The notes beneath the pieces were generated by a model. The model had not been told where the DNA came from. It saw only the letters and a program-made list of their open reading frames with translations, and did no database searches. 60,070 nucleotides of DNA from the NCBI RefSeq assembly GCF_002113885.1, contig NW_018404575.1:4725-64794 (forward strand), written 5' to 3'. How positions within the stretch are numbered: position 1 is the stretch's first letter; each line of letters begins with the position of its first letter. This document shows, in pieces, positions 5,316-60,070 of this stretch. This DNA is from Mizuhopecten yessoensis. Taxonomy: Eukaryota. The translations under genes were made by a program, and so were the position numbers.

Positions 5316-7295
5316 TTAAACAAGTGCAAAGACGGCAATATAATTATCCTCATCTGTATTACTAGTGCTAGTTACCACAAATGTATCACCACGAACAGCT
5401 AAAGAGCATGGATTGTGCACTCCTTCTGATGTCGTAAGTAGTTCCCTTACGTGTGCCCCATCCCTAGACATCTGAACGATGTTGTGTGAATCCATGCCGC
5501 ACACGTAGATGTTACCCTCCTTGTCCACGTCTATTCCCCTAGCTCCCATCACGACACCGACCGACATCACACTCCTGTGAGGTTTGTCAGCTGACAACCT
5601 AGACACAACGACGCTCCCCGGGTTGGTGTTACTGACACTGACAAATGTGTTTCTCGTCATTCGATCATGAGTGAGGGACCAACACGTGCTGTTATGTGTG
5701 TATAATAATACGGCTGCTCCGTTCTGTGTGATACTGTATACCTCTCCTCCACTAGTACCTATGACAAACTTTCCATCAGTATGCGTTATACCATAACAGT
5801 ATTTACGATTTGACATGTTGATCTCAGATGCTAGGAAGAGTTTTGAGGCCTTGACCTTTACGACACGTATACCACCGGGCCCCCCGACAGCGACCGCCAC
5901 CGTGTTGTTGGTCATCAGACACATATCCCTGGGATATCCTTGAACGGCCAACTCGTCCAGGTACTGCCCTTTGTCCGTAAACAACTTAAGCTTTTTGTTG
6001 TTATAATCACTTACTACTATGTGTGCACATGGCAGGTACACAACACCAACTGCGTAGCAATTCTTTCTATCTGACGGTGACTTGATGCTGAACTTTCCGA
6101 TTTCTTTCACACGTCGTTCTGACATTGGGTTTGCAAATTCGATATGACCCTCTGGGATGCATCGCGGTTGTTTCCGTACGACAATCTTTCCCATCGCGTC
6201 ATCGCTAATTATATCATTTCCAGAAGCAATATGATGCTCGATGCTAACGGATGTGAATGACTTGCGCATGTCTCTGACGAGGCTTTTACACGACTCTACT
6301 TCTGCCTGTCCTCTCTGATACAACACTATCGTCTCAGTGTCGTTGTTTCCTTCTACGGCTCTAATGGACGACTTCAGGGTATTTTTCATTCCGTTCATCA
6401 GACGTTCGCACTGCTGTGATGATGCCTCCATGTCTCTTTTCTCTTTTTTGAACAATGTAATCAAGTCGTCGGTGATGTCTTTCTGAAGCTTGTCTAGTCG
6501 TTTGTCGACCTTTCGACGTAGGTCGGAGATGATCTGCAGTGCTATTTCTTGGTTCTGTAACATCGCCTGGAGTTGTTGGTCAAAGTCCTTTACTACTGAG
6601 TCCATGACCTCTGCTCCTTTCTTCAGCGCAGCCTGCATCTCTTTTAGTTGTTCTCCTGACTTTAACTTTTTAAAATATTCCGTCGTTTTTGTCACCTCTT
6701 CACAACCTCTGTGGTCTTCGATCACACTTTCGGGGCAGCACAGAAGTTGGTGGTCTTCACAATACCAAATCATTTTCTCGTCGTGTCGGTCACATCGAGG
6801 GACAGACTTGTCATGTTTACAATGAGTATTTACGTAAACGGTGATATCCAATATATCACAGTCATTATGCAATATATCATGAAGTTGTACCTTACAAGAC
6901 TCACACAAACTGATATTCATCGTCTTGCACCAAAATTGTGCTGGGCTGGTTTTATTTCCTTTTGTCTGACATGGTTTGCAGTATATTGGTTCAGACGAAC
7001 GTTCCCCGAGCTGGATAATGTCATGGGCTACATTATTAGTCGGGAACTGTTTTGCCCATTTGTCCTTTGTTTCTGTCTGATTAACGGGAGAGGTCGTCCT
7101 CCTACAGACCGGACAAGGAAAGGATGTTGCCGACGCCATCTTCCCGGACAGCTCCTTGGTGATATAGATCCAGAGGCAATCCTGACAGAAGGAGTGGAGA
7201 CAGGGTAAGGACTTGGGTTGTTGAAGTCGCTCCAGGCAGATTGGACACTCCAGTAAGTGTAAGTCCAGGTCCGGAGGGAGACCACCTTCAGCCAT
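5316..7295 (-). CDS. TRIM E3 ubiquitin ligase copy 1 (RING/B-box1/B-box2/coiled coil/NHL-like propeller), 659 aa, intact
   Basis: RING CPICLERLQQPKSLPCLHSFCQDC...CPVC; B-boxes CKPC...CESC..LHDILH and CDRH...CEDH...DHRGC; heptad-rich region; NHL-like repeats (VVSDYNNKKLKLF, ARGIDVDKEGNIYVC). Confidence 0.93.
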   Translation of the reverse strand: MAEGGLPPDLDLHLLECPICLERLQQPKSLPCLHSFCQDCLWIYITKELSGKMASATSFPCPVCRRTTSPVNQTETKDKWAKQFPTNNVAHDIIQLGERSSEPIYCKPCQTKGNKTSPAQFWCKTMNISLCESCKVQLHDILHNDCDILDITVYVNTHCKHDKSVPRCDRHDEKMIWYCEDHQLLCCPESVIEDHRGCEEVTKTTEYFKKLKSGEQLKEMQAALKKGAEVMDSVVKDFDQQLQAMLQNQEIALQIISDLRRKVDKRLDKLQKDITDDLITLFKKEKRDMEASSQQCERLMNGMKNTLKSSIRAVEGNNDTETIVLYQRGQAEVESCKSLVRDMRKSFTSVSIEHHIASGNDIISDDAMGKIVVRKQPRCIPEGHIEFANPMSERRVKEIGKFSIKSPSDRKNCYAVGVVYLPCAHIVVSDYNNKKLKLFTDKGQYLDELAVQGYPRDMCLMTNNTVAVAVGGPGGIRVVKVKASKLFLASEINMSNRKYCYGITHTDGKFVIGTSGGEVYSITQNGAAVLLYTHNSTCWSLTHDRMTRNTFVSVSNTNPGSVVVSRLSADKPHRSVMSVGVVMGARGIDVDKEGNIYVCGMDSHNIVQMSRDGAHVRELLTTSEGVHNPCSLAVRGDTFVVTSTSNTDEDNYIAVFALV

Positions 7296-7324
7296 AGTAA
7301 AAGTAAGAAAGTGTCAACACAGAC

Positions 7325-8239
7325 CTGAAATTGAAAATGACAATAGTTATAATCAATTACCAATGAGAAAGACATCTATAGAAGCCGAAAAGTAACACAT
7401 GGAATACTATTTAATCATCATTAAATGTTGTCCAAGTAGTTTAATTGAGGTTAGTCATGTTTCCTATTTTTATTTTATAAACAATTCTGATTTAAAACAA
7501 ACTGTCTATAGACGACATTATGTTATATGGTGTGCAATGACTAGCATTTCTATAATACAAGTGATACCATTTGTTTTAAGTTTTTGAAAGGTTCCAGTTG
7601 TTTTTTGATAAATAGTTGTAATGTTGAAATTTGTAGTTCCTTATCACAAAGTAATATTTCCCGTATGGCCGATATACAAAGCATTTTTTTTTTGTAGCGT
7701 ATAATTCATGAAGCGGTATTGTTTACATTTCATATCGACCATCGACGATAACACAGTGTTTACTTGAACTTAAATGTATGTGTATGTCTGTGTATATGTA
7801 TAAGTCATAAGATCATTTAATCAGAAGTATACATTTGCTTTCTAATACATAAGTCGGTATTTTTATCACATCAATGCTAGCATTGAAGTCCTTTGACGCA
7901 GCAGGGGAGGTAACTCTTATGTATATCCAAGTCGCTAACATATTGTATACATGGATGCACATGAGAGCTTTCGTTTGATACTCATATAATACTATGCGTA
8001 CGTTCTTACATGCGTACGTTCTTACATGTAACGATGTTTACTAGCTTTTTGCTATCAATACAGACAATATATGCTACAAATGAAATAAGAAGTTTCGGTT
8101 TGTATTTTTCTAACAACAGCAAAGGTGTGTCTACATTGCAGTACAGGTACAACTGTGATATACACAGATTATCATTGACTGTTTGTAAAATAAACATCAC
8201 ATGTTAGGGTACATTATCACCTCTGTCTTATATACTCAC
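7325..8239 (-). other. Predicted 5'-UTR intron of TRIM copy 1 (non-coding exon 1 from ~8240 to ~8330)
   Basis: Minus-strand acceptor ttttcaatttcag| 29 nt before the ATG and donor G|GTGAGTA at 8240/8239. Equivalent sites: copy 2 (20791-21725), copy 4 (34474-35305), copy 5 (39760-41033). Confidence 0.65.
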
Positions 8240-8800
8240 CAAGGGGACACCTATTTACACGGGAGACACAAACTTCCATTCTATTAACAACCAGACATTG
8301 TTTACACCTTGAATCCTTCTCTCGAGACAAGGAAGTAAGTAGTGTAAATATCGAATGGAAAAGGCGGAGTCAAAATCCCGGATAGTGCACGCGTCGTATT
8401 ACTTAACGCTGATTTTTACAACATTACGTGTATTATTACTCACGATGTTTTTTTTGTATATGAAATAAAAAGAGGCTACATAGGTGCTGTGTTGTTGTTT
8501 GTATAATTTACGTTGAATAAGAAATATATAGTTATATAGTACAGTATAGACTTGCTTTAGTTATTTTCTTTTTATTTGGAAGTTTGGATAGGTCAATCGT
8601 AGTATAACAGAAGACATTTTATAAGGAAATGATAATGTGATTTGGTTAGATATGGGTATAAATACAGGTTCCATCACAGGAAAAGCTATGAGCAATCTGA
8701 TTATTTCCCTAAGAAAATTAGGCGTGATAACGGCGACCAAGAGGATAGAGTTAGGTTTATTTCGGCAGGTAGAATGAGGCTCTCTAAGACGGAATTAAAT

Positions 8801-9335
8801 AAGTACCGACATTAGAGATACAATAGGTTAGCCTGGAGCTGGTGTGAGTGGTGGCGACTATCCCTTTTCCTGTTAAGTTTGGTCAAATATAGGATAAGGC
8901 AACATTAGTCAAGTAGTCGTTTTTCATGAAACTATAATCTTAAAATAGTACATGAGGAATAGACGGCTCCTTCTTTCATCTATCATCACACTTCGTCCAT
9001 TTATTACTTACTTAATCCCCCTTACTCATTTTCTTGTCTTTTCTTTGTTTGTTGTATAACCAAACTAATCGGTAGTGAATTGATCACTCAAAAACAAACA
9101 AGGAGGAAACGCAGTCATAGTGAGAGGAACACTACTAAACGGAGGAAACGTTGAGAAGGCTAGTAGGGGTTATATTACGTCGTGTGTAGTCAAATTGAAT
9201 TACATAAGGTATATCAGTTGATAGTGTCTATAGTCGCATGGTATCGTAATGCAAGGCCAATTACAGGAATTCATAGTACATGCCGACGCACTGGGTATCA
9301 CGGAACAGGTCGAGGTACTGGGTTTCACATACCGA
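8801..9335 (-). repeat. Inverted diverged copy of 10830-11355 (unique core plus ~3 units of the 27-bp repeat)
   Basis: aagtaccgacattagagatacaataggttagcctggagctggtgtga is the reverse complement of tcacaccagctcctggctaacctgttgcatctgtaaagtcggtactt (~11308-11355) with few mismatches; colinear over ~530 bp. Confidence 0.9.
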
Positions 9336-10019
9336 ACGGACAAAATATCAAAATAAAACAAAAAAAGATAAATAAACATAGAATGAAATTGACAAACAGA
9401 TAAACATAAAAATAATAACAACAAAGCAATGTAAGGTTAAATTTTAATTTGTAATCCACATATATATACGTTACATGTATATACACACATACATGCTATT
9501 TATACAGTTATATATTATGTTATAAAAGTAAAAAGATAAACAAACACAAAAAAATAGATAATCTCAATATAAAAAAAGAATAACAACAAAATCAATAAAA
9601 AGTAGATAAATGATAATAATAATATAACCTTGTAAATATTCAGACAAAATATATCGAGTAAAAATGAAATCCGATTGATTCGTAAACAGGGGTAACATGA
9701 TAGTATACCATAAAAAATGTACTTTGGGGATAATGCTATTAACATTATTAACATCTTACTGTTAAAGGTCACGTTGTATTTTATGTCGAGATAGTATGCA
9801 TGAAAATCGATAGACACGAATATCTATCGCTATGACAACATGTATTACTTAAATGGTTGTTAAGCTTCCTAATTAAGAGTGTAATTGATTAATATGTAAT
9901 GAGCTTAGTATGTTCGTACGTCAAAGACGATATTGCTTGATAAGAACTTCAGAGACTGGACCAGTTCAACATTTAGATTTAATCGTAGCATTGACATTTA
10001 TTGAAACACACATTATACG

Positions 10020-10250
10020 GTATGATGACGTTTGTGTGCACTGATTGATGACGTTGTATGTACTTTATGATCACGTTTGTGTGCACGGATTGATGATATT
10101 GGCGTGGACTGGTCGATGCCGTATATGTACTATATTATGACGTTTATGTGCACTGATTGATGATGTGTATGTGCACTGATTGATGCCGTTTGTGTGAACA
10201 GATTGATGACGGTTATGTGTACTGATATATGACGTTCGTGTACTCTGATA
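10020..10250 (+). repeat. ~23-bp minisatellite (GATTGATGACGTTTGTGTGCACT), ~10 degenerate units
   Basis: Directly visible periodic units. Confidence 0.8.
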
Positions 10251-10258
10251 AACTGGAA

Positions 10259-10906
10259 GTCACCCTGTACTGTGATACCTAATATTTCGCCCTGTTCGTT
10301 GATATCCGATACGTCACCCTGTTTTCTGGTTCCAAGTGTACAGTAATACCAATTACATCGCCATGTACTGTGATACCCATTACGTCGACCTGTACTGTGA
10401 TACCAAGTACCTCGCCTTGTACTGTGATATCCAGTGCGTCGCCCTGTAATTTGATACGTAGTGCGTCGCCCTATACCGTGATACTAGGTACGTCGCCCTA
10501 TACTGTTTTACTCAGTACGTCGCCCTGTACTGTGATATCCAGTGCGTCGCCCTGTAATTTGATACGTAGTGCATTGCCCTATACCGTGATACTTAGTACG
10601 TCGCCCTATACTGTTATACTCAGTACGTCTCCCTGTACTGTGGTACCCAGTGCGTCGCCCTGTACTGTGATAACCAGTATGTTGCCCTGTACTTCGATAC
10701 CCTGTACTGCAATTCCCAGTACGTCGCCCTCTACCGTGATATATGCTATATCTACATATACGTGATATTCAGGACGTCACCCTGTACTAATATACCCAGT
10801 ACATCGCCATGTACTTTGATACCCAGTACGTCGCCCTGTACTGTTATACCCAGTACGTCGGCCTGTACTATGATTTCCTGTACTTCGCCTTGTACTACGA
10901 TACCAT
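10259..10906 (+). repeat. 27-bp tandem array (CCCTGTACTGTGATACCCAGTACGTCG), forward orientation
   Basis: Visible units; translates as the 9-aa repeat STSPCTVIP. Confidence 0.92.
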
Positions 10907-11354
10907 ACGACTATGTTCACTATCAAGTGATATACATTAATTATGTAATTCAACTTGACTATAAACTACACACGACATCATAGAACCCTTACTAGCCTTT
11001 TCACCGTTTCCTCACTTTGACTGCCAAAGTAAGAGATAGCGTTTCCTCCTTGTTTGTTTTTTAGTTGTCAATTCACTACCGATTAATTCGGTTACCCAAC
11101 AAACAAATAAAAGATATAAACAAATGAGTAGGGGGATTAAGTATGTAACAAATGGACCAAGTGGGATGATAAAGGAGAGAAGGAGCCGTTTATCCTTCAT
11201 GTATTAATTTAAGATGTAGTTTTATGAAAGACGACTCCTGGGCTAATGTTGCCTTATCCTGACTTTGACCCGACTTGACCGGAAGAGGGATACAAAGCCG
11301 CCATCAATCACACCAGCTCCTGGCTAACCTGTTGCATCTGTAAAGTCGGTACTT

Positions 11355-12810
11355 ATCACAGTACAGGGCGACGCACTGGGAATTACAGTACAATGCAACG
11401 TGCTGGATAACACAGTTAATGTTGACGTATAGGGTATCACAGTACACTGCGACATACTGGGCATCACAGTACAGGGTGACTTCCTGTGTATCAGAATACG
11501 GTATCAAAGTACAGGGCGATGTACTTGGTATCACAGTAGAGGTCGACGCAATTGGTTTCACAATACAGGGTCACGTGCTGGGTAACACAGTTAATGGTGA
11601 CATACTTGGTATTACAGTACAGGGCGACGTACTGGGTATCGAAATACAGGGTTACGTCCTGGGTATCGCAGTACATGGCGACGTACTGGGTATCAAGGGA
11701 CAGGGTGACCTCCTGGGTATCACATTATGTGCGACGTACTAGGTATCACGTTACAAGGCGACGCACTTAGAATCACAGTACAGGGCGAAACACCGGATAT
11801 CAAAGGACAGGGCAACGTACTTGGTATTACAGTACATAGNGGGGTATTACAGTACATAGTGACATACTGAGTATCACAGTACAGGGCAACGTACTAGTAT
11901 CACGTTACATGACGACGTGCTGAGTAACACACTTCATGGCGACGTACTGGTATCACAGTATATGGCGACGCACTGGGAATCACAGTACATGGGGACGTTA
12001 TGGGTATCAACTCACAGAGGGACGTACTGTGTATCAAAGTACAGGGCGACGTACCGGATATCAAAGTTTAGGTCGATGTACTGGGCATCGCAGTACAAGC
12101 CGACATACTGAGTATCACAGTACAGGGTGCCGCACTTGGTATCACAGTACAGGGTGACGTACTGGGTATATCCTGTACAGGGAGACGGACAGGGAATCCC
12201 AATACATTGTGACGTTCTAGGTATCAAGTTACAGGGCAATGTTCTTGGTATCACAGTACAGGCAGACACACTGGGTATCACAATACAGGGCGACATATTG
12301 GGTATCACAGTACATGGCGACATACTGGGTTTTACATGACAGGGTGACGTACTGGGTATCACAGTACAGGGCGACGCACTGGGAATCACAGTACAGCGTG
12401 ACGTACTGGGTATCACAGTACAGGGCGACCGACTTTGTATCAAGGTACAGGGACACCTATTTGTGTATCACAGTTCATGACAATGTTCTCGGTATCACAA
12501 TTTAGAATGCCGTACTGAGTAATAAAGTATAGGGCAAAACTTCGGTAATACAGTACAGAGCGAGGCACTGGATATTACAGAACTCGTACACAGACTGGAT
12601 ATTGCAGCACAGCGCGACGTATGTAGTATCACACTATGTGATTACGTACTAGGTTAACAGTACAGAGCTTGGTAACGAGTACAGGACGTCGCACATGGTA
12701 TCAGAGTACAGAGCGACGCACTTGGTATCACAGTGTAGGGCGTTGTCCTGTGTATCACAGTCCAGGGCAGCCTACTTGGTATGGCATTATAGGAAGAAGT
12801 CTAGGTAAAA
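11355..12810 (-). repeat. Same 27-bp array in reverse orientation (TATCACAGTACAGGGCGACGTACTGGG); contains an assembly N at 11840
   Basis: Unit is the reverse complement of the 10259-10906 unit; the minus-strand ORF again reads PSTSPCTVI. Confidence 0.92.
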
Positions 12811-12844
12811 TGTACTGGCTAAGGAGATATGTGTGGTAAATAAT

Positions 12845-13192: not shown

Positions 13193-13319
13193 TAACAACA
13201 CTCTCGGAAAACAATTGAATACTTAAGATAATTGCAGTGCTTGTAAAAAAGGCATTGTTGTGTACGGATAAAAAACTATTGTTTTCCTGTAAAAAGACGA
13301 CATTAAATATGTGATCAAA

Positions 13320-18782: not shown

Positions 18783-20762
18783 TTACACTAACTGAAAGAT
18801 ACGGATATAGTCCCTCTCGTCGTCTGTAATACTAGTATTAGCTACTACAAATGTGTCACCACAAACAGCTATTGCCCGTGGATATGTTATTCCATCTGAT
18901 GACGTCAGCAGCTCTCTGACGTGTGTTCCGTCTCCTGACATCTGTACGATGTTGTTTGATTCCCCACCACACACGTAGATGTTACCCTCTCTGTCCACGT
19001 CTATTCCTCTAGCTTCCCTCACGACACCGACTTTCGCCACATCCGTACGACGTTTGTCAGCCGAAAGTCTAGATACCGCGACGTCCCCCGGGTTGGTGTT
19101 ATTGACACTGACAAGTGTGTCTCCCTTTTTGATATCATGAGTGAGGGACCGACATGTGTTGTTATATCTGTATAACAAGTCGGCTGCTCCGTTCTGTGTC
19201 ACACTGTATACTTCTCCCTCGCCTGTACCCACGACCAACCTCCCGTCTGTATGTGTTATACCATAACAGTTTTTACCATTTGACACATTGATCGCAGATG
19301 TCAGGGAGAGTTTTGAGGCCTTGACTTTCATGAGATGAACACAGCCAGGACTGCTGACGGCAACCGCTATCGTGTTTTTGTTTACCAGACACATATCCAA
19401 GGGATTTCCACGAACAATCACCTCGTTCAGGTACTGTCCTTTGTCTGTAAATAACTTCAGTTTTTTGTTGTAGAAATCACTTACTACTATCTGTGCACTC
19501 GGCATACACATAACGCCACGGGCATAGCTATTCTGTTTATCTGACGGGGACTTGATGTTAAATTTTCCGATTTCTTTCACACGTCGTTCTGACATGGGGT
19601 TTGCTAAATCGATATGGCTCCAAGGGATGCATCGTGGTTGTTTTCCGACGACGATCTTTCCCATCGCGTTATCACCAATGATATCATGTCCGGGAACAAT
19701 TTGATGCTCGATGCTGAGGGATGTAAATGACTTACACAACATAGTGACCAGAGTCCTACACGACTCTACTTCTGACTGCCCTCTCTGATACAACACTATC
19801 GTCTCAATGTTGTCGTTTTGCTTTACGGCGTTAATGGACGACTTCAGGGTATTTTTCATCCCGTTCATCAGGCGTTCGCACTGCCGTGATGATGCCTCCA
19901 TGTCTCTTTTCTCTTTTTTGAACAATGTAATCATCTCGTCGGTGATGTATTTCTGAAGTTTGTCAAGTCGTTTATCGACCTTTTGACGCAGGCCGGAGAT
20001 GCTCTGCAGTGCAATTTCCTGGTTCTGTATCATGGTTTGGAGTTGATCATCAAAGTCCTTCACTCAGGAGTTCAAACGATCATTTCCTTTCTTCAACGCC
20101 GCCTGCATGTCTTCTAGTTGCGATCCTGCTTTTACCTTATGGCAATATTCCTTCATCTTTGGTACTTTTCCACAACTCCTATGGTCTTCGATCACACATT
20201 CGTTGCAGCACAGACGTTGGTGATCCTCACAATACCGAACCATTTTCTCGCCGTGTTGATAACACCGAGGGGCAGACGTTTCCCTATTTAGTCGTTTGCT
20301 ATGGTTTCCGGTGACATCCAGTATATCACATTCAGTGTGTATGATATCATGAAGTTCTAACTTACAAATGTTGCAAAAGTTCTCGTTCATCGTCTTGCAC
20401 CAATAACTGGCCGGGTTGTTCAGGTTACCTTTTGTCTGGCAGGGTTTGCAGTACAATGGTTCAGACGAACGTTCCTTAAGCTGGATAAGATCCTGGATCA
20501 AACTATTAGTCGGGAATTGCTCTGCCCATTTAGCCCTTGATTCTGCAAGCTGAACAGGAGAGGTCGTCATCCTACAGATCGGACAAGGGAAGGATGTTGT
20601 CGACATCATCTTCCCGGACAGTTCCTTTGTAATATATGTCCCGAGACAATCCTGACAGAAGGAGTGTAGGCACGGTAAGGACTTTGGCAGTTGAAGTTGC
20701 TCAAGGCATATTGGACACTCCAACAAGTGTGAGTCCAGTTCTGAACTCACACTTGTAGCCAT
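18783..20762 (-). pseudogene. TRIM copy 2, full 660-codon frame with one in-frame TGA (20064-20066)
   Basis: ATG at 20762 (MATSVSSELDSHLLECPIC); span 1980 bp, equal to intact copies. AAC TCC TGA GTG AAG aligns to AGC TCA TTA GTG AAG in copies 4/5. No frameshift. Confidence 0.85.
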
Positions 20763-27475: not shown

Positions 27476-29422
27476 TTAGCACAGCTGAAAGAAACGAATA
27501 TAGTTCTTCTCGTCTGTAGTACTATCATTAGTTATCACAAATGTGTCGCCACAAACAGCTATTGCCCATGGAGAGTTAATTCCATCTGATCAAGTCAGAA
27601 GTTCCCTGACGTGTGTACCGTCCGCAGACATCTGCACGATGTTGTGTGATCCCCCACCACATAGTATGTGTTACCTTTCCTGTCGATGTCTATTCCCCTA
27701 GGATCCCTCACGACACCGACCTTCATCACATCCGTGTGACATGTATCTGCCGACAGTCTAGACACCGCGACTTCCCCCGTGGTGGTGTTCCTGACACTTA
27801 CGAGTGTGTCACCCTTTATTGGATCATGTGTTAAAGACCAACAGTAGTTATTATATTTGTATAACAACTCGGATGCTCCGTTCTGGGTCACACTGTGTAC
27901 TGGTCCTCGACCTGTACCCAAGACAAACTTCCCGTCTGTATGTGTTATACCATAACAGTTTTTACCATTTGACATGCTAATATCAGATGCCAGGGAGAGT
28001 TTTGAGTCCTCGACCTTTACGACACGTATACCGCCAGGACTGTTGATTTCGACCGTCACTGTTTTGTCGTCCACCAAACACATATCCCAGGGATTCTCCC
28101 GCACCGTGAACTCATCCAGGTACTGTCCTTTGTCTGTAAACAATTTCAGCCTTTTTGTTGCTGTAATCACTTAGAACTATATGTGCACATGGCAGGTACA
28201 CAACTCCAACAGCTGAGCAATCATATCGATCTGAGGGTAGCTTGATGTTGAACTTTCTGATTTCTGTTACGTGTCGTTCTGACATTGGGGTAGCTAAATT
28301 GATATGGCCCCCAGGGATACATCGTGGTGTTTTCTCGAAGACAATCTGTCCCATCGCGTTATCGCTAATAATATCATGTCCGGGAACAATTTGATGATCG
28401 ATGCTGACGGATGTGAAGGACTTGTTATCTCCGTGACAAGTGTCTTACACGACTCCACTTCTGTCTGTCCTCTCTGATACAACACTATCGTCTCAATGTT
28501 GTCGTTTTCCTCTACGGCTTAAATGGACGACTTCAGGGTATTAAGCATACCATTCATCAGACGTTCACACTGCAGTAATGATGCTTCCATTTCTCCTTTC
28601 TCTTCTTTGAACACGATAATCAACTCGTCGGTGATGTCTTTCTGAAGCTTGTCTAGTCGTGTATCGACCTTTTTACGCAGGTCGGAGATACTCTGCAGTG
28701 CGATTTCTATATTTTTTATCATGGTTTGGAGTTGTTCATCCATTCATTCACAAGTGAGTTCATATTCTCTGTTCCTTTCTTCAACGCCTGCATGTCTTGT
28801 AGTTGCGATCCTGCTTTTATTTTCTGAAAGTATTCCGTCATTTTTTTTACTTTCTCCGCAATTCCTTTGGTCTTCGACCATGCATTCGTTACAGCACAGA
28901 CGTTGGCGATCCTCACAATACCGAACCCTTTTCTCGTCGTGTGTGTGGTCGTTTCCTATGGCTTCTGGTGACATTCATTATATCACAGTCATTATGTATG
29001 ATATCATGAAGTGTTACCTTACAAGTGTTGCAAAAAATATCGTTCATTGTCTTGCACCAGAAACTGGCTAGGTTGTTTGAGTTACCTTTTGTCTGGCAGG
29101 GTTTGCAATACAATGGTTCAGACGAACTTTTCTTTAGCTGGATAAGGTCCTTTGTCACCGAAATAGTCAGAAATTGTTCTGCCCATTTGTCCTTGGTTTC
29201 GGCCTGATTGACCGAAGGGGTCATCCTCCTACAAACTGGACAAGTGAATGATGTTGACGACGCCATCTTCCCTGATAGTTATTTGGTGATAAAGGTCCCT
29301 AGGCAATCCTGACAGAAGGAGTGGAGACAGGGTAAGGACTTGGGTTGTTGAAGACGCTCCAGGCAGATTGGACACTCTAGTAAGTGTAAGTCCAGTTCCG
29401 GAGGTAGACCACCTTCAGCCAT
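27476..29422 (-). pseudogene. TRIM copy 3, multiply disrupted pseudogene
   Basis: MAEGGLPPELDLHLLECPIC start; TAA at codon 48 (29279-29281); several frameshifts split homology across ORFs 28913-29266, 28744-28974, 28519-28743, 28112-28354 and 27595-28170; ends FQLC-stop. The 5'-UTR donor reads CT instead of GT (30380). Confidence 0.92.
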
Positions 29423-32464: not shown

Positions 32465-34444
32465 TTAGCACAGTTGAAAGACACGGATATAGTTGCTCTC
32501 GTTTGTAGTACTGTTATTAGTGACCACAAATGTATTACCACGAACAGCTATTGCACATGGCTTGACCATTCCATCTGATGACGTCAGCAGTTCCCTGACG
32601 TGTGTCCCGTCCATAGAGATCTGAACGACGTTGTGGGAATCAAACCCACACACGTAGATGTTACCCTCCATGTCCACGTCTATTCCCATAGCTCCCTTCA
32701 CGACTCCAACATTTAACACATCCGTACGACGTTTGTCAGCCGACAGTCTAGATACCGTGACGTCTCCCTGTGTGATGTTATTGACACTGACAAGTGTGTC
32801 TCTTCTTTTGATATCATGAGTGAGGGACCGGCATGTGTTGCTATATTTGTATACCAACCCGGCTGCTCCGTCCTGTCTCAAACTGTATACTTCTCCTCCA
32901 CCCGTACCAACGACCAACTTCCCGTCTATATGTGCTATACCATAACAGTTTTTATCATTTAACACCTTGATTGTAGATGTCAGGGAGAGTTTTGAGGCCT
33001 TGACCTTTATGAGGTTAACACATCCAGGACTGCTGAGAGCAACCGCTACCGTGTTGTTGTTTACCAGACACATATCCCAGGGATTTCCCCGAACATTCAA
33101 CTCGTCCAGGTACTGTCCTTTGTCTGTAAATAACTTCAACTTTTTGTTGTAGAAATCACTTACTATTATCTGTGCACTCGGTACATACACAACACCACGG
33201 ACATAGCTATTCTGTTTATCTGACAGGGACTTGATGCTAAATTTTCCGATTTCTTTCACACGTCGTTCTGACATTGAATTTACTAAATCGCTATGGCTCT
33301 CAGGGATGCATCGTGGTTGTTTCCCGACGACGATCTTTCCCATCGCGTTACCACTAATGATATCATGTCTGGGAACAATTTGATGCTCGATGCTGACGGA
33401 TGTGAATGATTTACTCAACTCAGTGACCAGGGTCCTACACGACTCCACTTCTGCCTGTCCTCTCTGATACAACACTATCATCTCAACGTTGTCGTTTTCA
33501 TCTACGGCTTTAATGGACGATTTCAGGGTATTTTTCATTCCGTTCATCAGACGTTCGCACTGCCGTGATGATGCCTCCATGTCTCTTTTCTCATCTTTGA
33601 ACAAGGTAATTAACTCGTCGGTGATGTCTTTCTGAAGCTTGTCTAGTCGTATGTCGACCTTTTGACGCAGGTCGGAGATGCTCTGCAGTGCGATTTCCTG
33701 TTTCTGTATCATGGTTTGGAGCTGTTCATCAAAGTCCTTCACTAATGAGCTCATACTCTCTGTTCCTTTCTTCAACGCCGCCTTCATGTCTTCTAGCTGC
33801 GATCCTGCTTTTACCTTCTGACAATATTCCGTCACCTTTGGTACTTTTACACAACTCCAATGGTCTTCGATCACGCATTCGTTGCAGCACAGAATTTGGT
33901 GATCCTCACAATACCGAACCATTTGTTCGCCGTGTTGATAACACCGAGGGGCAGACGTTTCTTTTTTTTGTCGTTTGCTGTGGTTTCCGGTGACATTAAG
34001 TATATCACAATCATTATGTATGATATCGTGAAGGTGAACCTTACAAGTGTCACAAAAGTTCTCGTCCATCGTCTTGCACCAAAAACTGGCTGGGTTGTTC
34101 ATGTTACCTTTTGTCTGGCAGGGTTTGCAGTACAATGGTTCAGACGAACGTTCCTTTAGCTGGATAAGTTCGTTTATCACAGTATTAGTCGGAAAATGTT
34201 TTGCCCATTTATCCTTGGTTTCTGTCTGATTAACCGGATGGGTTATCCTCCTACAAACTGGACAAGAAAATGATGTTGCCGACGCCATCTGCCCGGACAT
34301 CTCCTTGGTGATACAAGTTCCTAGACAATCCTGACAGAAGGAGTGAAGGCAGGGTAAGGACTTGGGTTGTTGAAGTCGCTCTAGGCAGATTGGACATTCC
34401 AGTAAGTGTAAGTCCAGTTCCGGAGGGAGACCGCCTTCAGCCAT
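32465..34444 (-). CDS. TRIM E3 ubiquitin ligase copy 4, 659 aa, intact
   Basis: Same domain motifs as copy 1; uninterrupted ORF. Confidence 0.93.
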   Translation of the reverse strand: MAEGGLPPELDLHLLECPICLERLQQPKSLPCLHSFCQDCLGTCITKEMSGQMASATSFSCPVCRRITHPVNQTETKDKWAKHFPTNTVINELIQLKERSSEPLYCKPCQTKGNMNNPASFWCKTMDENFCDTCKVHLHDIIHNDCDILNVTGNHSKRQKKETSAPRCYQHGEQMVRYCEDHQILCCNECVIEDHWSCVKVPKVTEYCQKVKAGSQLEDMKAALKKGTESMSSLVKDFDEQLQTMIQKQEIALQSISDLRQKVDIRLDKLQKDITDELITLFKDEKRDMEASSRQCERLMNGMKNTLKSSIKAVDENDNVEMIVLYQRGQAEVESCRTLVTELSKSFTSVSIEHQIVPRHDIISGNAMGKIVVGKQPRCIPESHSDLVNSMSERRVKEIGKFSIKSLSDKQNSYVRGVVYVPSAQIIVSDFYNKKLKLFTDKGQYLDELNVRGNPWDMCLVNNNTVAVALSSPGCVNLIKVKASKLSLTSTIKVLNDKNCYGIAHIDGKLVVGTGGGEVYSLRQDGAAGLVYKYSNTCRSLTHDIKRRDTLVSVNNITQGDVTVSRLSADKRRTDVLNVGVVKGAMGIDVDMEGNIYVCGFDSHNVVQISMDGTHVRELLTSSDGMVKPCAIAVRGNTFVVTNNSTTNESNYIRVFQLC

Positions 34445-37750: not shown

Positions 37751-39730
37751 TTAGCACAGTTGAAAGACACGGATATAGTTGCTCTCGTTTGTAGTACTGT
37801 TATTAGTGACCACAAATGTGTTACCACGAACAGCTATTGCACATGGCTTGACCATTCCATCTGATGACGTCAGCAGTTCCCTGACGTGTGTCCCGTCCAT
37901 AGAGATCTGAACGACGTTGTGGGAATCAAACCCACACACGTAGATGTTACCCTCCATGTCCACGTCTATCCCCATAGCTCCTTTCACGACTCCAACATGT
38001 AACACATCCGTACGACGTGTGTCAAACGACAGTCTAGATACCGCGACGTTTCCCTGTGTGATGTTATTGACACTGACAAGTGTGTCTCTTCTTTTGATAT
38101 CATGAGTGAGGGACCGGCATGTGTTGCTATATTTGTATACCAACCCGGCTGCTCCGTCCTGTCTCAAACTGTATACTTCTCCTCCACCCGTACCAACGAC
38201 CAACTTCCCGTCTTTATGTGCTATACCATAACAGTTTTTATCATTTAACACCTTGATGGTAGAAGTCAGGGAGAGTTTTGAGGCCTTGACTTCTATGAGG
38301 TTAACACATCCAGGACTGCTGAGAGCAACCGCTACCGTGTTGTTGTTTACCAGACACATATCCCAGGGATTTCCCCGAACATTCAACTCGTCCAGGTACT
38401 GTCCTTTGTCTGTAAATAACTTCAACTTTTTGTTGTAGAAATCACTTACTATTATCTGTGCACTCGGCACATACACAACACCACGGGCATAGCTATTCTG
38501 TTTATCTGACAGGGACTTGGTGCTAAATTTTCCGATTTCTTTCACTCGTCGTTCTGACATGGATTTTACTAAATCGCTATGGCTCTCAGGGATGCATCGT
38601 GGTTGTTTTCCGACGACGATCTTTCCCATCGCTTTACCCCTAATGATATCATGTCTGGGAACAATTTGATGTTCGATGCTGACGGATGTGAATGATTTAC
38701 TCAACTCAGGGACCAGGGTCCTACACGACTCCACTTCTGCCTGTCCTCTCTGATACAACACTATCATCTCAATGTTGTCGTTTTCCTCTACGGATTTAAT
38801 GGACGATTTCAGGGTATTTTTCATTCCATTCATCAGACGTTCGCACTGCCGTGATGATGCCTCCATGTCTCTTTTCTCTTTTTTGAACAATGTAATCAAC
38901 TCGTCGGTGATGTCCTTCTGGAGTTTGTCAAGTTGTTTATCGACCTTTTCACGCAGGTCTGAGATGCTCTGAAGTGCGATTTCCTGGTTCTGTATCATGA
39001 TTTGGAGCTGTTCATCAAAGTCCTTCACTAATGAGCTCATACTCTCTGTTCCTTTCTTCAATGCCGCCTGCATGTCTTCTAGCTGCGATCCTGCTTTTAC
39101 CTTCTGACAATATGCCGTCACCTTTGGTACTTTTACACAACTCCTATGGTCTTCGATCACGCATTCGTTGCAGCACAGAATTTGGTGATCCTCACAATAC
39201 CGAACCATTTGTTCGCCGTGTTGATAACACCGAGGGGCAGACGTTTCTTTTTTTTGTCGTTTGCTGTGGTTTCCGGTGACATTAAGTATATCACAATCAT
39301 TATGTATGATATCGTGAAGGTGAACCTTACACGTGTCACAAAAGTTCTCGTTCATCGTCTTGCACCAAAAACTGGCTGGGTTGTTCAGGTTACCTTTTGT
39401 CTGGCAGGGTTTGCAGTACAATGGTTCAGACGAACGTTCCTTTAGCTGGAGAAGTTCGTTTATCACAGTATTAGTCGGAAAATGTTTTGCCCATTTATCC
39501 TTGGTTTCTGTCTGATTAACCGGATGGGTCATCCTTCTACAAACTGGACAAGAAAATGATGTTGCCGACGCCATCTGCCCGGACATCTCCTTGGTGATAC
39601 AAGTTCCTAGGCAATCCTGACAGAAGGAGTGGAGGCAGGGTAAGGACTTGGGTTGTTGAAGTCGCTCAAGGCAGATTGGACATTCCAGTAGCTGTAAGTC
39701 AAGTTCCGCAGGGAGACCGCCTTCAGCCAT
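37751..39730 (-). CDS. TRIM E3 ubiquitin ligase copy 5, 659 aa, intact, very similar to copy 4
   Basis: Same motifs; differs from copy 4 only at scattered residues. Confidence 0.93.
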   Translation of the reverse strand: MAEGGLPAELDLQLLECPICLERLQQPKSLPCLHSFCQDCLGTCITKEMSGQMASATSFSCPVCRRMTHPVNQTETKDKWAKHFPTNTVINELLQLKERSSEPLYCKPCQTKGNLNNPASFWCKTMNENFCDTCKVHLHDIIHNDCDILNVTGNHSKRQKKETSAPRCYQHGEQMVRYCEDHQILCCNECVIEDHRSCVKVPKVTAYCQKVKAGSQLEDMQAALKKGTESMSSLVKDFDEQLQIMIQNQEIALQSISDLREKVDKQLDKLQKDITDELITLFKKEKRDMEASSRQCERLMNGMKNTLKSSIKSVEENDNIEMIVLYQRGQAEVESCRTLVPELSKSFTSVSIEHQIVPRHDIIRGKAMGKIVVGKQPRCIPESHSDLVKSMSERRVKEIGKFSTKSLSDKQNSYARGVVYVPSAQIIVSDFYNKKLKLFTDKGQYLDELNVRGNPWDMCLVNNNTVAVALSSPGCVNLIEVKASKLSLTSTIKVLNDKNCYGIAHKDGKLVVGTGGGEVYSLRQDGAAGLVYKYSNTCRSLTHDIKRRDTLVSVNNITQGNVAVSRLSFDTRRTDVLHVGVVKGAMGIDVDMEGNIYVCGFDSHNVVQISMDGTHVRELLTSSDGMVKPCAIAVRGNTFVVTNNSTTNESNYIRVFQLC

Positions 39731-51400: not shown

Positions 51401-53823
51401 TGGCCCCGATATCTCAGACACTGAGAAGGATTCAGAAGAGGGTGAATACTTCAACGAGATACGCAAAAGAGCAAAGGCTAACAACACGAAAATGGTGTGA
51501 GAAGGTAGAAAAAATATGAGGAGAATGTACACTGAAAGAAAGACCCTGTAAGTAAGGCTGATAACAAAATGCAAGAAGAAGATATGATGGAGTGCCTCAA
51601 TTTATATGAGAGAACTGTCGAAATTTGTTTACAGCTAAGAAATGGTTAAATAGACACAAAAACCAAGCAGCCTGTAGAGAGGTACATGCGAAGCGATTAC
51701 AAAACCCTTCCTGTCATACGCATGTCTCTAGGGAAATACAGACACCAGATACAAGAACATTTGTATGATGATGATGATGACGATGATGATGATGATGAAC
51801 CCGCAGATGAGGACAATGACTATGAAGAGGAGGACACTACCTCCGGCAACGACGAGTGATGTTTCTCCCGACCCGACAATCTCTATAGATACGTATGAAA
51901 GGCCGGGAAATAGTCATCAGCAAATATAGGACAAGGAAATGGTTACAACACAGGAAGCATACAGAACAGAACAGTCGTTATTAGGATTGATGACCAATGG
52001 TGTGCCGATCTTATGGATATGGTACCAATCTGGAATGACAATGAGGGATATTCCTGTGTTCTTGTGGTCATCTATGTGTTCTCCTAGATCTTGTGGACAA
52101 TGGTTAAGAAAGCGGTGTCTCTTACCAGCGCCGTTCGTGACATGCATAATGAGGGGAGACAACCGAGAAGGATTTGTACCGACAAAGGGCAATACTGTTA
52201 GGCCAGAGGGGTTCAGGTGATCCTCCGACAGCATGGCATCAGACACCTGTTCGTAGAGACCGAGTTAAAAACAGCAGTCACTGAAAGGGTATTGAAAACA
52301 ATCAATACTCGCATGTACATGTATTTCACACACAGAAGAAACTATGAATGTTTGGAAGAACTCAAATTGTTTGCCGATAGTAACAACAATACCTACCATA
52401 GCACTAACGGCATGGCTCCATCAAAGGTCTTTAAGGCAACGACACCTCTGTCTGGTGGAGAATTTACGAATTTAAGATGTTTGTCTACATACGACGAAGG
52501 TTGTGAGAAATTCGTTTAGGTTCATGATTGACAGATTGACACATCTCCGTAACCCATTTAGCCGTGAATACGACGAGATGTGGACGGGTGAAATATCTGC
52601 CGTGGCAGAAAGGATATTGCGAAGTGGACTACCCGTATATAGGGTTAAAGACTATGACACATGGTGCGCACAGCTGTGCGATTAAACAATCGTTCGTCCC
52701 GTTGTGCGCTTCTTTCCGAACACATGTGAGATTTGGTACAATTGGTTGAACAACATTACGGAAGGAAGAAAATTCGGAACTCTCGTATAGAATAAGAAAC
52801 ACTATATATATATGTATATATATATATAGTTCTCATCAAATTAATTAGGATTATGTTAAATTGTACAATACATGTTACATGTACACAGCATAACAGTGAC
52901 CGTTATACTGTCAATAATGGGTTTATCTCCCAGGTAACAGAACAGGCAAATAACATTTTGATTATTGACAGGAGTTTTACCTAGCATGTGTCTAACAAAG
53001 ACAGCTGATATGTGATACCGTATGACAGTTATGAAAACACAACTGGACGTTAAGTATTTGGTATTTGCATTCGGTTTGGTCTATAGCTCCTCTTTATCTG
53101 GTTTTCACACTTTCGCAAGTTACGTAAATGCCCCGGGTTGAGAAAACTAAAGTACAGGTACAAAGTGGCTATATTTTCCTGGATACGTGACCATGTTGAT
53201 ATGTTTTATTTTAAATATGTCGATTTGTAATCTATTTGATGCCTCTTATAATGCAAAACGAGAAACTGCCATAAGATAATGTGACGCATACTGTTCAACC
53301 CAAATGAAAGCATATGGCATTCACAGACCCGATAGGGAACGCATATGGCATTCACAGACCCGATACAGAGAATTGCTAGAACATGCATACCCCTTAATAT
53401 ACTGTATATAGATATGAACCTGGGCTTGATATGTGTCATCGTATTATCATCTCAGGGTTTTTAATTACACAAATGTATACAAAACAATATCTGAGTCTTG
53501 TTAACAAGGACAAGAACCTTGTTAAAACAAGTACATTGTAAATATTTTTGTTTTTATTTGAATACAAATGTTTAACACACACCTGATATACTGACTACAG
53601 AAGTCGGTCGTTTTACTGTACGGTACATACACGTTGTACTGACTACTGAGGTCGGTAGTCTTTCTGTATAAACACATTGTACTGAAATTTGAAATGAAAT
53701 TAACATGCTCGTGTATACAATACTTTGCTCAATTTCTTTATAACATATTCTGTCTGTACGGTGTTTTCACATTGTGCTGACAACACGTACCAAATTTCTA
53801 CGGAATCAATATATTTTAAAAAA
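48459..53823 (+). repeat. Tandem duplicate of 43048-48458 (Maverick relic copy B: PolB ~48520-50695, ATPase ~50697-51085, integrase ~51860-52660, plus host flank)
   Basis: Identical or near-identical ORFs recur at offsets 5411 (43434/48845) and 5361 (46556/51917; 47845/53206); the junction lies in a shared AAAA. Confidence 0.93.
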
Positions 53824-53971
53824 CTCGGATTTCATATCTCTCCTATGGATGCAACACAAAATATAGTCCAATTGTTTTACAATTGTATTTATTGTGTTGT
53901 AAAGCTATAGGTTCGTTGACTTTTTGAGGAACTGATTCCTGTAGTGTTTACCCGAGCTCTTAATTGTATGA

Positions 53972-54082
53972 CGTAGTTCTCTGACGTGTGTCTAGTTCAT
54001 GGACATATGTTTGACATTCTGTGAATAATGACCACACAGGTAGATGTTACCTTCCCTGTCCACGTCTACTTTCATAGCTCTC
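53972..54082 (-). pseudogene. Short degenerate TRIM propeller relic (DVDREGNIY..THVREL); second partial copy at ~54520-54585
   Basis: tagatgttaccttccctgtccacgtcta matches the coding sequence of the full copies. Confidence 0.7.
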
Positions 54083-55041
54083 CTTGTTATTACTTACTTG
54101 GTTTTATCAAACATTTATCTATATATGTGAATGTGTTTTAGTCGTTCTCATGCTATGTCGATAACACCACACGAAAATAAAGATATAATCAGGTGGTGTT
54201 TATTCATTCATTTTATAAATCACGTATAACTATCAATACACTAAACATACTATTTATATGTATATATAATATAAAATAAAGATAAAACAATCAATGTATT
54301 TCAAATATATGATTGTATTTGTTTAGCTTTGTTATAAAGCTATAGATTTTACACAATCACACTAAAACATTGCTAAACATTTTGAGAAACTGAATTCTTT
54401 TGTGTTACCACCAGCTCTTTAAAGTCTGAAGTACAATTTATATAAATCTATGCACGGTGTGTATTCTGTCGTTACGATATACGCCTACATTCTAAGTGTT
54501 CAGCACACATTGTTTTACGCTGTGTGAATAATGATCACACACATAGATGTTACCTTCCCTGTCCACGTCTATTTCCATAGCTCTTCTTGTTATTACTTAC
54601 GTGGTTGTATCAAACATTTATCTTTATATGATTTTATAATCGTTCTCACGCTATGTCGATAACACGCATATCTATTGGTTTTATAATTCACATGGAAACA
54701 AAGATATAATCAGGTGGTGTCTATTTACTCATTTTATAAAGCACGTGTACTAATTATCAATACACTTAACATACTTTGTACAAATGATAAGTAATACAGA
54801 TAAAACAATGTAATTTAAGTATCTGATTTGATTTGATTTGCTTTGTTGTACAGCTATAGGCTGTACACAATCACACTAAAACGTCCTAAACATTTTGAGA
54901 AACTGATTGCTTTTGTGTTTACACCAGCTCCTAATTGTCTGAGGTAAAATTATATAAATCTATGCACGGTGTTTATTCTGTCTTTACGATGTGCACCTAC
55001 ATTCTTAGTGTTCAGCACACATTGATTTTCGTTTATCTTAA

Positions 55042-55198
55042 TTAGTACAGCTGAAAGACACGGATAAAGTTATCGCCTGTAGTACCAGTACTAGTTACCA
55101 CAAATGTGTCACCACAAACAGATATTGCATGTGGAGATTGAATTCCATCTGATGACGTCAACAGTTCCCTGACGCATGTTCCGTCCCAAGACATCTGT
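55042..55198 (-). pseudogene. TRIM 3'-end fragment (last ~52 codons)
   Basis: QMSWDGTCVRELLTSSDGIQSPHAISVCGDTFVVTSTGTTGDNFIRVFQLY-stop; homology ends abruptly at 55198. Confidence 0.88.
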
Positions 55199-55273
55199 TG
55201 TAAAGCGCCTTAGAGTAATATTACAAATCATATAGGGCGCTATATAAATGTTGTATATTATCATTATTATTAT
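55199..55273 (+). mobile_element. L2/CR1-group LINE or SINE 3' tail
   Basis: TGTAAAGCGCCTTAGAG...GGCGCTATATAAAT stem-loop followed by a (TTA)n-like tail, the characteristic L2-type 3' end. Confidence 0.6.
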
Positions 55274-57534: not shown

Positions 57535-58455
57535 CCTTGTACTGACTAGGGAGACAAATCGACTGTTTGCACGATACATTTTCATTTACTACTGGCGTCA
57601 GCCCTATGTCTGTACGGTACATGGATATTTTATTGGCTACAAAGATCGGTCGTCTGTCTATGGGGTACATGCACCTGGTAATGACTACATATATCAGTCG
57701 TCTGTTTGTGCGATTCATACACCTTGTACTGACTACGGAGGTTGCACGCCTCTCTGTACGGTACATACACATTGTACAGACAACAGAGGTCAGTAGTCTT
57801 TCTGTACGATATATACACCTTGTACTGACTACGGATGTCTGTTGTCTGTCTGTACGCTACATACATCTTGTACAGACAACAGAGGTCAGTAGTCTGTCTG
57901 TACGGTACAAACACATTGTACTTACTACGGGGATCACTTGTCTGTCTGTACGGTACATACACCTTGTACTGACTACGGATGCCTGTTGTCTGTCTGTACG
58001 GTACACATATCATGTACTCACTATATAAATCGGTCGTCTGTCTATATGGTTTATACACCTTGTGCTGACTACAGAGGTTGATCGAATGTCTGTACGGTAC
58101 ATATACCTTTAACTGAAAACGGAGGTATGTCGTCTGTCTGTACGGGACATACTTCGTGTACTGACTACGGATGTCGGTCGTCTGTCTGTACGGTAAATAC
58201 ACCGTGTACTGACTCCGGGGGTCGGTCGTCTGTCTTTACGGTACACACACCTTGTACTGACTACGGATACCTGTCGTCTGTCTATACGGTACATACATTT
58301 TGTACTGGCTACGAAGGTCGGTCGTCCGTCTGTACAAGCACCTTTCACTAAAATTTGAAATTAAATTGCCATTCTCGTGTATACAATACTTTGCACAATT
58401 TCCTTTATGATATATTCTGTCTGTACGGTATATACACCTTGTGCTGACAACACGT
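57535..58455 (+). repeat. 48-bp minisatellite, ~17 units (remnants also at 48225-48325 and 53586-53685)
   Basis: 16-aa periodic translation LSVRYIHLVLTTDVCC / LSVRYIHIVQTTEVSS. Confidence 0.92.
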
Positions 58456-58712
58456 ATTTCAAAAACCATACGTGATTACAATCAATACACTTTAAAAAAC
58501 TCAGAAGATTTCAAATCTCTAATATGGATGTACCCGAAAATATAGTCCAATTGTTTTACATTTTGATTTATTGTATTGTAAAGCTAAATGTTCGTTGATT
58601 GTTTGAGGAACTGATTCCTGTAGTGTTTACCCGAGCTCTTAAATGTCTGATGCATCGTTAAGATATCAGCATTTATTTCAAATACACATTTGTTTTTTTC
58701 ATTTTTACTCCT

Positions 58713-58884
58713 TTAGCACAGTTGAAAGTCCTCTCGTCTCCTCATGGATTAGCCATTCCATCTGATGATGTCAGCAGTTCTCTGACGTGTGTCCCGTCCA
58801 TGGACATAAGTTAGAGGTTGTGTGAATAATGACCACACACGTAGATGTTACCTTACCTGTCCACGTCTATTTCCATAGCTCTCC
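58713..58884 (-). pseudogene. Degenerate TRIM 3' relic with internal deletion
   Basis: GAMEIDVDR.GNIYVCGHYSHN..MSMDGTHVRELLTSSDGM..FQLC-stop. Confidence 0.75.
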
Positions 58885-59338
58885 TTGTTATTACTTACTT
58901 GGTTTTATCAAATATTTATCTAAATATGTGAATGTTTTTAATCGTTCTCATGCTGTGTCCATAACACGCATATCTATTTTTTCATAAACCACATAAAAAT
59001 AAGGATATAATCAGGTGGTGTTTATTTATTCATTTTATAAATCACGTGTAATAATGATCAATACACTTAAGATGCTATATATATGTATATATGATATATT
59101 ATAAAGATAAAACAGTCAATGTAATTTAAATATATGATTTTATTTGATTTGCCTTGTTGTAAAGCTGTAGGTTTCACACACATCACACCTTTTGAGGAAC
59201 TGATTTTTTTTGTGTTTACACCAGCTCTTTATTGTCTGAAATAAAATGTATATAATTGATGCACGGTGTGTATTCTGTCGTTACGATATACGCCTATATT
59301 CTAAGTGTTCAACACACATTGATTTTCCTTTATTTTAA

Positions 59339-60070
59339 TTAGTACAGCTGAAAGACACGGATAACGTTCCTCTCGTCTTTACTACTATTACTAGTTACCA
59401 CAAATGTGTCACCACAAACAGATATAACCCAGGGAGATTGAATTCCATATGATGACGTCAGAAGTTCCCTGACGTGTGCTCCGTCCCCAGCCATCTGTAC
59501 AATGTTGTTTGATTTCCCACCACGCACTTAGATGTTTCCCTCCCTGTCCACGTCTATTCCCCTAGCATCCATCACCACACCGACCGTCATCACATTCGTA
59601 TGGCGTTTGTCAGCCGACAGTCTAGACACCGCAACGTCCCCCGGGGTGGTGTTACTGACACTGACAAGTGTGTCACCCTTTATTGGATCATGAGTGAGGG
59701 ACCAATACATCCGGTTATAATTGTATAACAACTCGGCTGCTCCGTTCTGTGTCACACTGTATAATTCTCCTCCACCTGTACCCACGACAAACTTCCCGTC
59801 TATATGTGCTATACCATAACAGTGTTTACCATTTGACATGTTGATCTCAGATGCTAGGGAGAGTTGTGAGGCCTTGACCTTTACGACACGTACACCACCA
59901 GGCACCTCGACAGCGACAGCCACCGTGTTGTTGTCCACCAGACACATATCCCTGGGACGTCCCCGAACAGTCAACTCGTCCAGGTACTGGCCTTTGTCTG
60001 TAAACAACTTCAGCTTTTGGTTCCAGTAATCACTTACTAATATTTGTGCACATGGTAGGTACACAACACC
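59339..60070 (-). pseudogene. TRIM copy 6 (propeller part; continues beyond the window) with in-frame TAA at 59528-59530
   Basis: GNI-TAA-VRGG aligns to GNIYVCGG (TAC to TAA); the frame continues to FQLY-stop. Confidence 0.85.

Follow-up and report, generated by a model that had tools for sequence, protein, structure and literature searches.

The finTRIM and TRIM5alpha proteins carry a RING/B-box/coiled-coil (RBCC) part followed by a B30.2 domain. They form clustered, lineage-specific expansions in which the RING/B-box part is conserved and the C-terminal domain is under positive selection (accessible part of PMC2657112). The TRIM array described here lies in a 60,070-nucleotide stretch of the scallop Mizuhopecten yessoensis genome (contig NW_018404575.1, positions 4,725 to 64,794; hereafter the window) and shares these traits, but its recognition domain is an NHL-fold propeller, not B30.2, and its host is a mollusc. 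The finTRIMs were found as virus-induced transcripts. By analogy, the scallop family resembles restriction factors of the finTRIM/TRIM5 type, although it is not a member of them. Nematodes and plants have large ubiquitin-ligase families of F-box and MATH-BTB adaptors that also turn over by birth and death; positive selection acts on their substrate-binding domains, and foreign proteins are their proposed targets. They are cullin adaptors, whereas the scallop receptor and RING share one chain. In the fungal HET-D/HET-E (NWD) proteins, the effector is a HET/NACHT death module in place of the scallop RING. As in scallop, a few equivalent residues per WD40 repeat on the propeller surface of this fungal multigene family are under diversifying selection (PMC1805685, in the text available); HET repeats, however, are homogenised and shuffled within and between genes, while the scallop blades are distinct and whole genes duplicate. 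Judged by these analogies, the evolutionary pattern is finTRIM-like and the structural pattern is like that of the fungal het WD40 domains; the kind of system is a known one, here with another fold.

The TRIM-NHL proteins (TRIM2/3/32/71, Brat, Mei-P26; class C-VII, Marin subfamily C with TRIM56) resemble the scallop proteins in their RING, B-boxes, coiled coil and six-bladed propeller closed by the first strand, and the variable scallop positions are spaced like the RNA contacts of LIN41. Unlike them, the scallop proteins lack a filamin domain (optional in the class), are only 15-18% identical with degenerate NHL repeats, occupy >100 loci instead of a few conserved genes, and have a face that diversifies and is not uniformly basic. 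The architecture agrees with subfamily C as far as the accessible text of PMC3503706 describes it, and our placement is by architecture. Publications already cover B-box expansions in bivalves and the expression of TRIM genes in disease (PMC8382680, PMC9892467, PMC6971885, each in the part available). We found no literature account of selection in bivalve TRIM propellers in a search that was thin in subscription journals and covered main texts without supplements; the available portions of PMC7653742, PMC12373286, PMC8382680 and PMC9334734 do not describe selection at the propeller face.

Here, positive selection on the propeller face held after corrections in two of the three clades tested. 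The diversifying recognition face is well supported, and from it we infer the function. Six-frame translation and tblastn of the window revealed six gene-sized copies (W1-W3 and W5-W7) and four small 3' fragments, arranged head-to-tail on the minus strand. W1, W5 and W6 are intact 659-codon frames, and the other three copies broke recently (Table 1).

The zf-C3HC4 RING scored above the Pfam cut-off in W1, W5 and W6. Six of its eight ligands were invariant in all 63 intact genes of our collection and the other two in 62, counts that include 26 later-collected genes picked with a RING pattern. Two B-box-type Cys/His clusters were kept in 58-63 of the 63 genes, the first with atypical spacing; matches to Pfam zf-B_box (E 3e-4 to 7e-4) stayed below the Pfam cut-off. 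In W1, Ser replaces a B-box-2 cysteine kept in 62 of the 63 genes (codon 190, 6726-6728). Since RNA contigs confirmed this codon with 0 differences, the second B-box of W1 may be weakened. The AlphaFold model showed a long coiled coil (helices 216-315 and 319-346), which also gave a profile match to the TRIM28 RBCC, and a six-bladed propeller. Modelled alone, the W1 propeller reached a predicted local distance difference test score (pLDDT) of 92.8 and a predicted template modelling score (pTM) of 0.91, and superposed on the NHL domain of TRIM2 (7qrv) with Z 30.9 and a root-mean-square deviation (rmsd) of 2.6 over 253 aligned residues. The ten top structural matches were NHL domains of TRIM2, TRIM3, TRIM71/LIN41 and Thin (Z 30.1-30.9, identity 15-18%). 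By sequence, PF01436 (NHL) scored 21.7, 17.5 and 19.7 bits in the three intact copies against a cut-off of 20, passed by W1 alone. No filamin domain was matched in Pfam, and only ~49 residues separate the coiled coil from the propeller. A C-terminal B30.2 (PRY-SPRY) domain is absent, the structural match identifying this domain as the propeller. COP1, the top Foldseek match of the full-length model, was rejected as a relative because it matched only through the coil-plus-propeller layout (rmsd >30).

For the codon models, we collected genes from contig C76580 and from 87 other gene-sized stretches chosen for long matches. The yield was 63 genes that are intact or nearly so: the window and C76580 supplied 3 each, a first batch of 47 stretches gave 31 and a second of 40 gave 26. 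As the choice favours long frames, the intact fraction is not a pseudogene rate. Of the 63, 48 intact genes in six clades were used: clade A has 16, including W1, W5 and W6, clades B and C have eight each, and clade F has five. The identical C76580 partner of W5, the C-terminally altered L099, and singletons or pairs on long branches were left out. We applied GY-type models with F3x4 frequencies, M0 branch proportions fixed with a free scale, and naive empirical Bayes. The structural classes were fixed from the secondary structure of the model before the site lists were known. In propellers, loops D-A and B-C make the top face.

The likelihood-ratio test (LRT) statistics for M1a/M2a, M7/M8 and M8a/M8 were 139.0, 184.5 and 137.0 in clade A, 29.6, 51.0 and 25.1 in clade B, and 74.8, 94.2 and 71.1 in clade C. 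All 22 clade A sites with posterior probability (PP) >0.9 lay in the propeller, 21 of them within the 81 top-face codons and none in the 44 bottom-loop codons, RING, B-boxes or coiled coil (top versus bottom, p=3.8e-5; strict loops 16 versus 0, p=1.7e-4). The corresponding top-face shares were 9/12 in clade B and 11/14 in clade C. The ratio of nonsynonymous to synonymous rates (dN/dS, ω) in clade A was 0.19 for the RING, 0.33 for the coiled coil, 0.40 for both strands and bottom loops, 0.46 for the B-boxes and 1.39 for the top face. For clade A, the M8a/M8 LRT over the N-terminal 395 codons was 0.0. When each third of the propeller was given its own tree, the clade A signal persisted (LRT 39.5, 43.8 and 39.1), which excluded recombination as its sole cause.

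The selected sites fall in register across the six blades. Three positions of each blade are hot, namely the residues before and after the proline-equivalent that opens strand A, and the residue after strand B, giving a ring of 18 residues. Pooled register ω was 3.54 in clade A (18 codons), 2.36 in clade B (17 codons) and 4.38 in clade C (17 codons), while the neighbours were constrained, with ω of 0.5-0.7 at the proline position and 0.01-0.40 at P+3. Purifying selection thus keeps the RING, coiled coil, strands and bottom loops, and selection has repeatedly exchanged the residues at three positions of each blade. The register was defined after clades A-C had been seen and then applied unchanged to D-F, where its ω was 1.36 (1.01-1.83), 1.89 (1.40-2.43) and 1.66 (1.17-2.36), with bottom loops at 0.37-0.47; three of the five clade F genes had been displayed beforehand, so clade F is not a wholly independent set. 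In Argopecten and Pecten, the register differed more than other top-face positions in five of five protein clusters (p<=1.2e-3), with pairwise differences at the protein level of 0.56-0.75 in the ring, 0.29-0.45 in the rest of the top face and 0.08-0.34 in the bottom loops.

The hypervariable propeller loops that the original prediction reported in this array were confirmed, and its interpretation of them was partly supported. Every loop motif it quoted is present on the minus strand, QGYPRD, RGNPLD, RENPWD, RGNPWD and RGRPRD coming from W1, W2, W3, W5 and W6, and W7, and QSPHA from the 50-codon fragment at 55048-55197. The variation of these loops goes beyond chance: between W1, W2, W5 and W7 (residues 417-659), pairwise differences numbered 66/96 in the register, 72/264 in bottom loops and 185/777 in strands. 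Three of the five sequences it compared are broken genes, and the rings of W5 and W6 are identical; little harm resulted, as W2 and W7 broke recently, judging by terminal-branch ω of 0.42-0.52 outside the top face. Pseudogene drift was likewise rejected as the source of the variation, because the site models used intact genes only and these two branches are still constrained. Its strand cores, described as nearly invariant, have ω of 0.40. Where it saw two variable positions per blade we found three, also in blades 1 and 3, whose pre-strand-A loops it had not listed. Its constant RING is strongly conserved without being constant. The predicted placement of variable sites on the top face was borne out when they were mapped on the predicted structure, as was dN/dS above 1 at the loops and below 1 elsewhere. 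Neither an even spread of sites, nor dN/dS at or below 1 at the loops, nor a lack of expression of the intact copies was found.

The best reading, by analogy, is a finTRIM-like repertoire of cytosolic recognition ligases with a propeller in place of B30.2. The family is probably an immune or defence receptor repertoire, in which a conserved RING/B-box/coiled-coil part and a propeller with a diversifying top face make cytosolic ligases that tag foreign or selfish targets. The RING/B-box/coiled-coil part is predicted to act as a ubiquitin ligase. Following general TRIM biology, the coiled coil would dimerise the protein and present two propellers, the ring would bind the target surface, and clustering or ligand would activate the RING for ubiquitination. 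Pathogens or genomic parasites may be the driver. We also propose, tentatively, that scallops and probably other molluscs might encode in the germline a repertoire of ~100 or more cytosolic, antibody-like ubiquitin ligases, with the 18-residue ring as a tunable paratope for proteins of pathogens or selfish elements, and with copies gained and lost between haplotypes; if true, the repertoire would parallel the TRIM5/finTRIM system in an invertebrate, on another fold. The NHL fold is familiar as a conserved reader of RNA; here it serves as a diversifying binding scaffold, and the 18 named residues are predicted specificity determinants. Breeders could genotype the cluster, whose copy number varies. 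In the available text of PMC9892467 and PMC6971885, genes for disease resistance or tolerance repeatedly include bivalve TRIM-like genes, to which no mechanism is attached.

Across 36 genes, the ring contained 18% Tyr, 10% Arg, 8% Ser, 7% Asn, 6% Trp and 6% Phe; aromatic or His residues made up 34% of it, compared with 5% of the bottom loops. Antibody binding sites have a similar make-up. Net charge across 37 genes ranged from -2 to +5 in the ring and from -6 to +4 over the whole top face, and Arg or Lys accounted for 14% of the ring residues. As the sign of the charge varied, the ring is not a conserved basic RNA-binding top face. By its composition, the ring favours varied protein ligands, with nucleic acid possible for basic members; because it is aromatic and polar with variable charge, the ligand would more likely be a protein than an RNA backbone.

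As reported for LIN41, RNA is contacted by Arg564/Arg581, Arg611/Lys628, Tyr658/Trp660/Arg676 and Arg752/Arg770 (PMC5908797). These contacts are spaced by 2 and 17-18 residues, the ring positions by 2 and 16-18, and in the HMMER alignment the W1 register falls on the TRIM2/3 motifs P-x-G and A-D-x. From this agreement the ring would correspond to the ligand-contact set of the NHL fold, a mapping by spacing and TRIM2/3 alignments. The family could accordingly be read as RNA-binding regulators like Brat, Mei-P26 and LIN41, in which selection retunes the specificity for host or transposon transcripts; the closest folds are the NHL domains of TRIM2/3/71, and Tyr, Trp and Arg are able to stack on bases. 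We consider this unlikely, since LIN41 reads RNA with a basic cavity (PMC5908797), whereas the scallop ring has the variable charge and modest Arg/Lys share given above. The ring also differs in make-up from the basic patch that the accessible part of PMC9070667 attributes to Brat, LIN41 and Mei-P26. The analogy with RNA binding drawn in the original prediction is weakened by a ring that is not consistently basic.

A quite unlikely possibility is that the ligases diversify not against pathogens but against endogenous protein partners, for instance in conflict within the germline, self/non-self discrimination or proteostasis under stress. Selection reveals a shifting partner and not its origin, and fungal het genes use selected propeller-face residues for allorecognition (PMC1805685, text available). 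The rapid birth-and-death with species-specific clusters fits the finTRIM pattern instead (PMC2657112, in part).

Several results weigh against a defence repertoire with a selected face. With double and triple substitutions and synonymous-rate variation allowed, the M1a/M2a-type LRT fell to 15.4 in clade A and 13.4 in clade C (2 degrees of freedom, p ~5e-4 and ~1e-3) and to 0.0 in clade B, so plain M8 overstates the strength of the signal. With a free synonymous rate per partition, ω of the whole top face was 0.73 in B and 0.91 in C, compared with 1.32 in A. The pairwise homoplasy index (PHI) on synonymous sites indicated recombination in clade B (p=0.006; p=0.10 in A and 0.56 in C), with few informative sites (63 in B, 74 in A, 34 in C), and the synonymous rate near hot sites of clade B was raised (1.56, 0.99-2.32). 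The signal of clade B is not secure. In clades D, E and F, the post-proline position did not exceed 1 (ω 0.67-1.04), and the M8 sites of clade D were dispersed over the gene. The most recent duplicates, W5 and W6, have the same residue at every one of the 18 register positions, with 31 changes elsewhere. Finally, the TRIM multigene families found among oyster resistance and tolerance genes (PMC6971885, PMC9892467, accessible parts) are not tied to this family.

In clades A and C, synonymous rates at amino-acid-invariant codons beside hot sites were not raised (0.90 and 0.62), which disfavours local hypermutation. That the face was merely released from constraint after duplication, with multi-base changes and short gene-conversion tracts inflating dN/dS, is very unlikely and for clades A and C already largely refuted: the multi-hit and rate-variation terms do improve the fit strongly and erase the signal of clade B, which recombines, but that of A and C survives both corrections and is limited to three positions per blade with constrained neighbours, the equally exposed bottom loops stay at ω ~0.4, and these positions come up again in other clades and species.

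The birth-and-death turnover claimed in the original prediction was supported by tandem duplication, deletion, comparison with C76580 and a species-grouped tree. The propeller query gave at least 148 matches in the M. yessoensis genome, fragments and duplicate contigs included. Among the 120 best homologs, all species-labelled proteins were from scallops, the closest labelled Mizuhopecten yessoensis, and look-alike clusters in the ESM Atlas were mostly molluscan. In a tree of 96 proteins, the subfamilies are shared, and within them paralogs mostly clustered by species. C76580 aligns collinearly with the window at 98.6% identity over 27.5 kb, dropping to ~91% at the right end; it represents the other haplotype or else a segmental copy of very recent origin. 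W5 is identical on both, the counterpart of W2 also has one stop (2 base differences), and that of W6 has a 16-base frameshifting deletion. An N at window position 11840 separates this block from that of W1, whose collinear copy on C76580 is broken and ~80% identical, with flanks at 88.7% (window 5316-10894, C76580 31002-36467); this copy represents a very old allele or, alternatively, another paralog. Just beyond the fragment at 55048-55197, ~22 kb of C76580 with one intact and one broken gene are missing from the window, with no N at the junction. The W5/W6 pair arose within a 5.3-kb tandem duplication. Tandem duplication and deletion thus make and remove copies. We also observed several shortened copies of 232-566 aa (L016, L021, L031, L032, W2), whose stop follows the B-boxes, the coiled coil or a portion of the propeller. 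With a single coding exon, such shortened products might escape decay and act as truncated partners. For W2, a functional truncated product found no support, as ω before and after the stop (0.42 and 0.52) is indistinguishable from background.

In twenty runs from 11 studies, half or more of the words sampled from the W1 region are present; one run is recorded as RNA and the others are guessed or unlabelled. Contigs from two studies (runs X1 and X2) linked 7322 with 8238 with zero mismatches, spanning a GT-AG intron of 915 bases that has canonical splice sites, and RNA run X11 joined W5 to two alternative upstream exons. These spliced joints give the genes a non-coding first exon and one coding exon, with two or more of the three intact copies transcribed, in line with the expression originally predicted for them. 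The contigs carry no level, tissue or induction information, their depths do not rank expression, and the lack of a spliced joint for W2, W3 and W6 is uninformative. Intronless retrocopies were ruled out by the spliced 5' non-coding exon and by flanks common to neighbouring copies. A 1.7-kb contig downstream of W5 (30674-32353) suggests a long 3' untranslated region.

Table 1. Features of the TRIM array (window coordinates; ORF, open reading frame).
Feature	Position	Strand	Description	Evidence
W1	5316..7295	-	Intact, 659 aa, one coding exon: RING, two B-box-type zinc modules, coiled coil, six-bladed NHL-fold propeller	ORF, Pfam, structure models, RNA contigs with 0 differences
W1 C3HC4 RING	7104..7247	-	Residues 17-64	Pfam zf-C3HC4, 34.3 bits, cut-off 21
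W1 propeller	5319..6110	-	Residues 396-659; first strand closes blade 6	Structure model, structural matches
W1 register	5364..6056	-	Span of the 18 hypervariable codons: 414/416/431, 454/456/471, 499/501/515, 537/539/555, 584/586/601, 628/630/644	Site models and register analysis
W1 5' exon	8238..8321	-	Non-coding; outer 5' end not fixed	RNA-contig joint 7322/8238
W2	18783..20762	-	Full-length, single nonsense codon at codon 233 (20064-20066)	tblastn
W3	27476..29422	-	Broken by frameshifts and stops	tblastn matches in several frames
W5	32465..34444	-	Intact, 659 aa; alternative upstream exons near 35304 and 35723	ORF, tblastn
W6	37751..39730	-	Intact, 659 aa, 95% identical to W5	tblastn, contig comparison
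Fragment	53884..54090	-	Blade 5, with stops	tblastn
Fragment	54510..54593	-	Blade 5	tblastn
Fragment	55048..55197	-	50-codon C-terminal remnant of a gene intact on C76580 (75568-77538)	Contig comparison
Fragment	58745..58891	-	Blade 5, with stops	tblastn
W7	59342..60070	-	Propeller part, nonsense codon in blade 5, cut by contig end	tblastn

A decayed Polinton/Maverick-like element is tandemly duplicated inside the array (43048-48462 and 48459-53823, plus strand, 95-99% identity) and present as a single copy at the corresponding place of C76580. One of its frames matches proteins with the A32 packaging ATPase family PF04665. It also contains what we take to be polymerase-like and integrase-like pieces. 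A weak tyrosine-recombinase match at 2273-2743 on the minus strand (PF00589, E 0.002, below the cut-off) is probably a transposon remnant. Minisatellites of 27 and 48 bases occupy 10239-12782, 12835-13191 and 57607-58335, the 27-base array occurring in both orientations. Between W2 and W3, the region ~23300-24600 had high contig depth in all four runs mapped and is probably a transcribed repeat.

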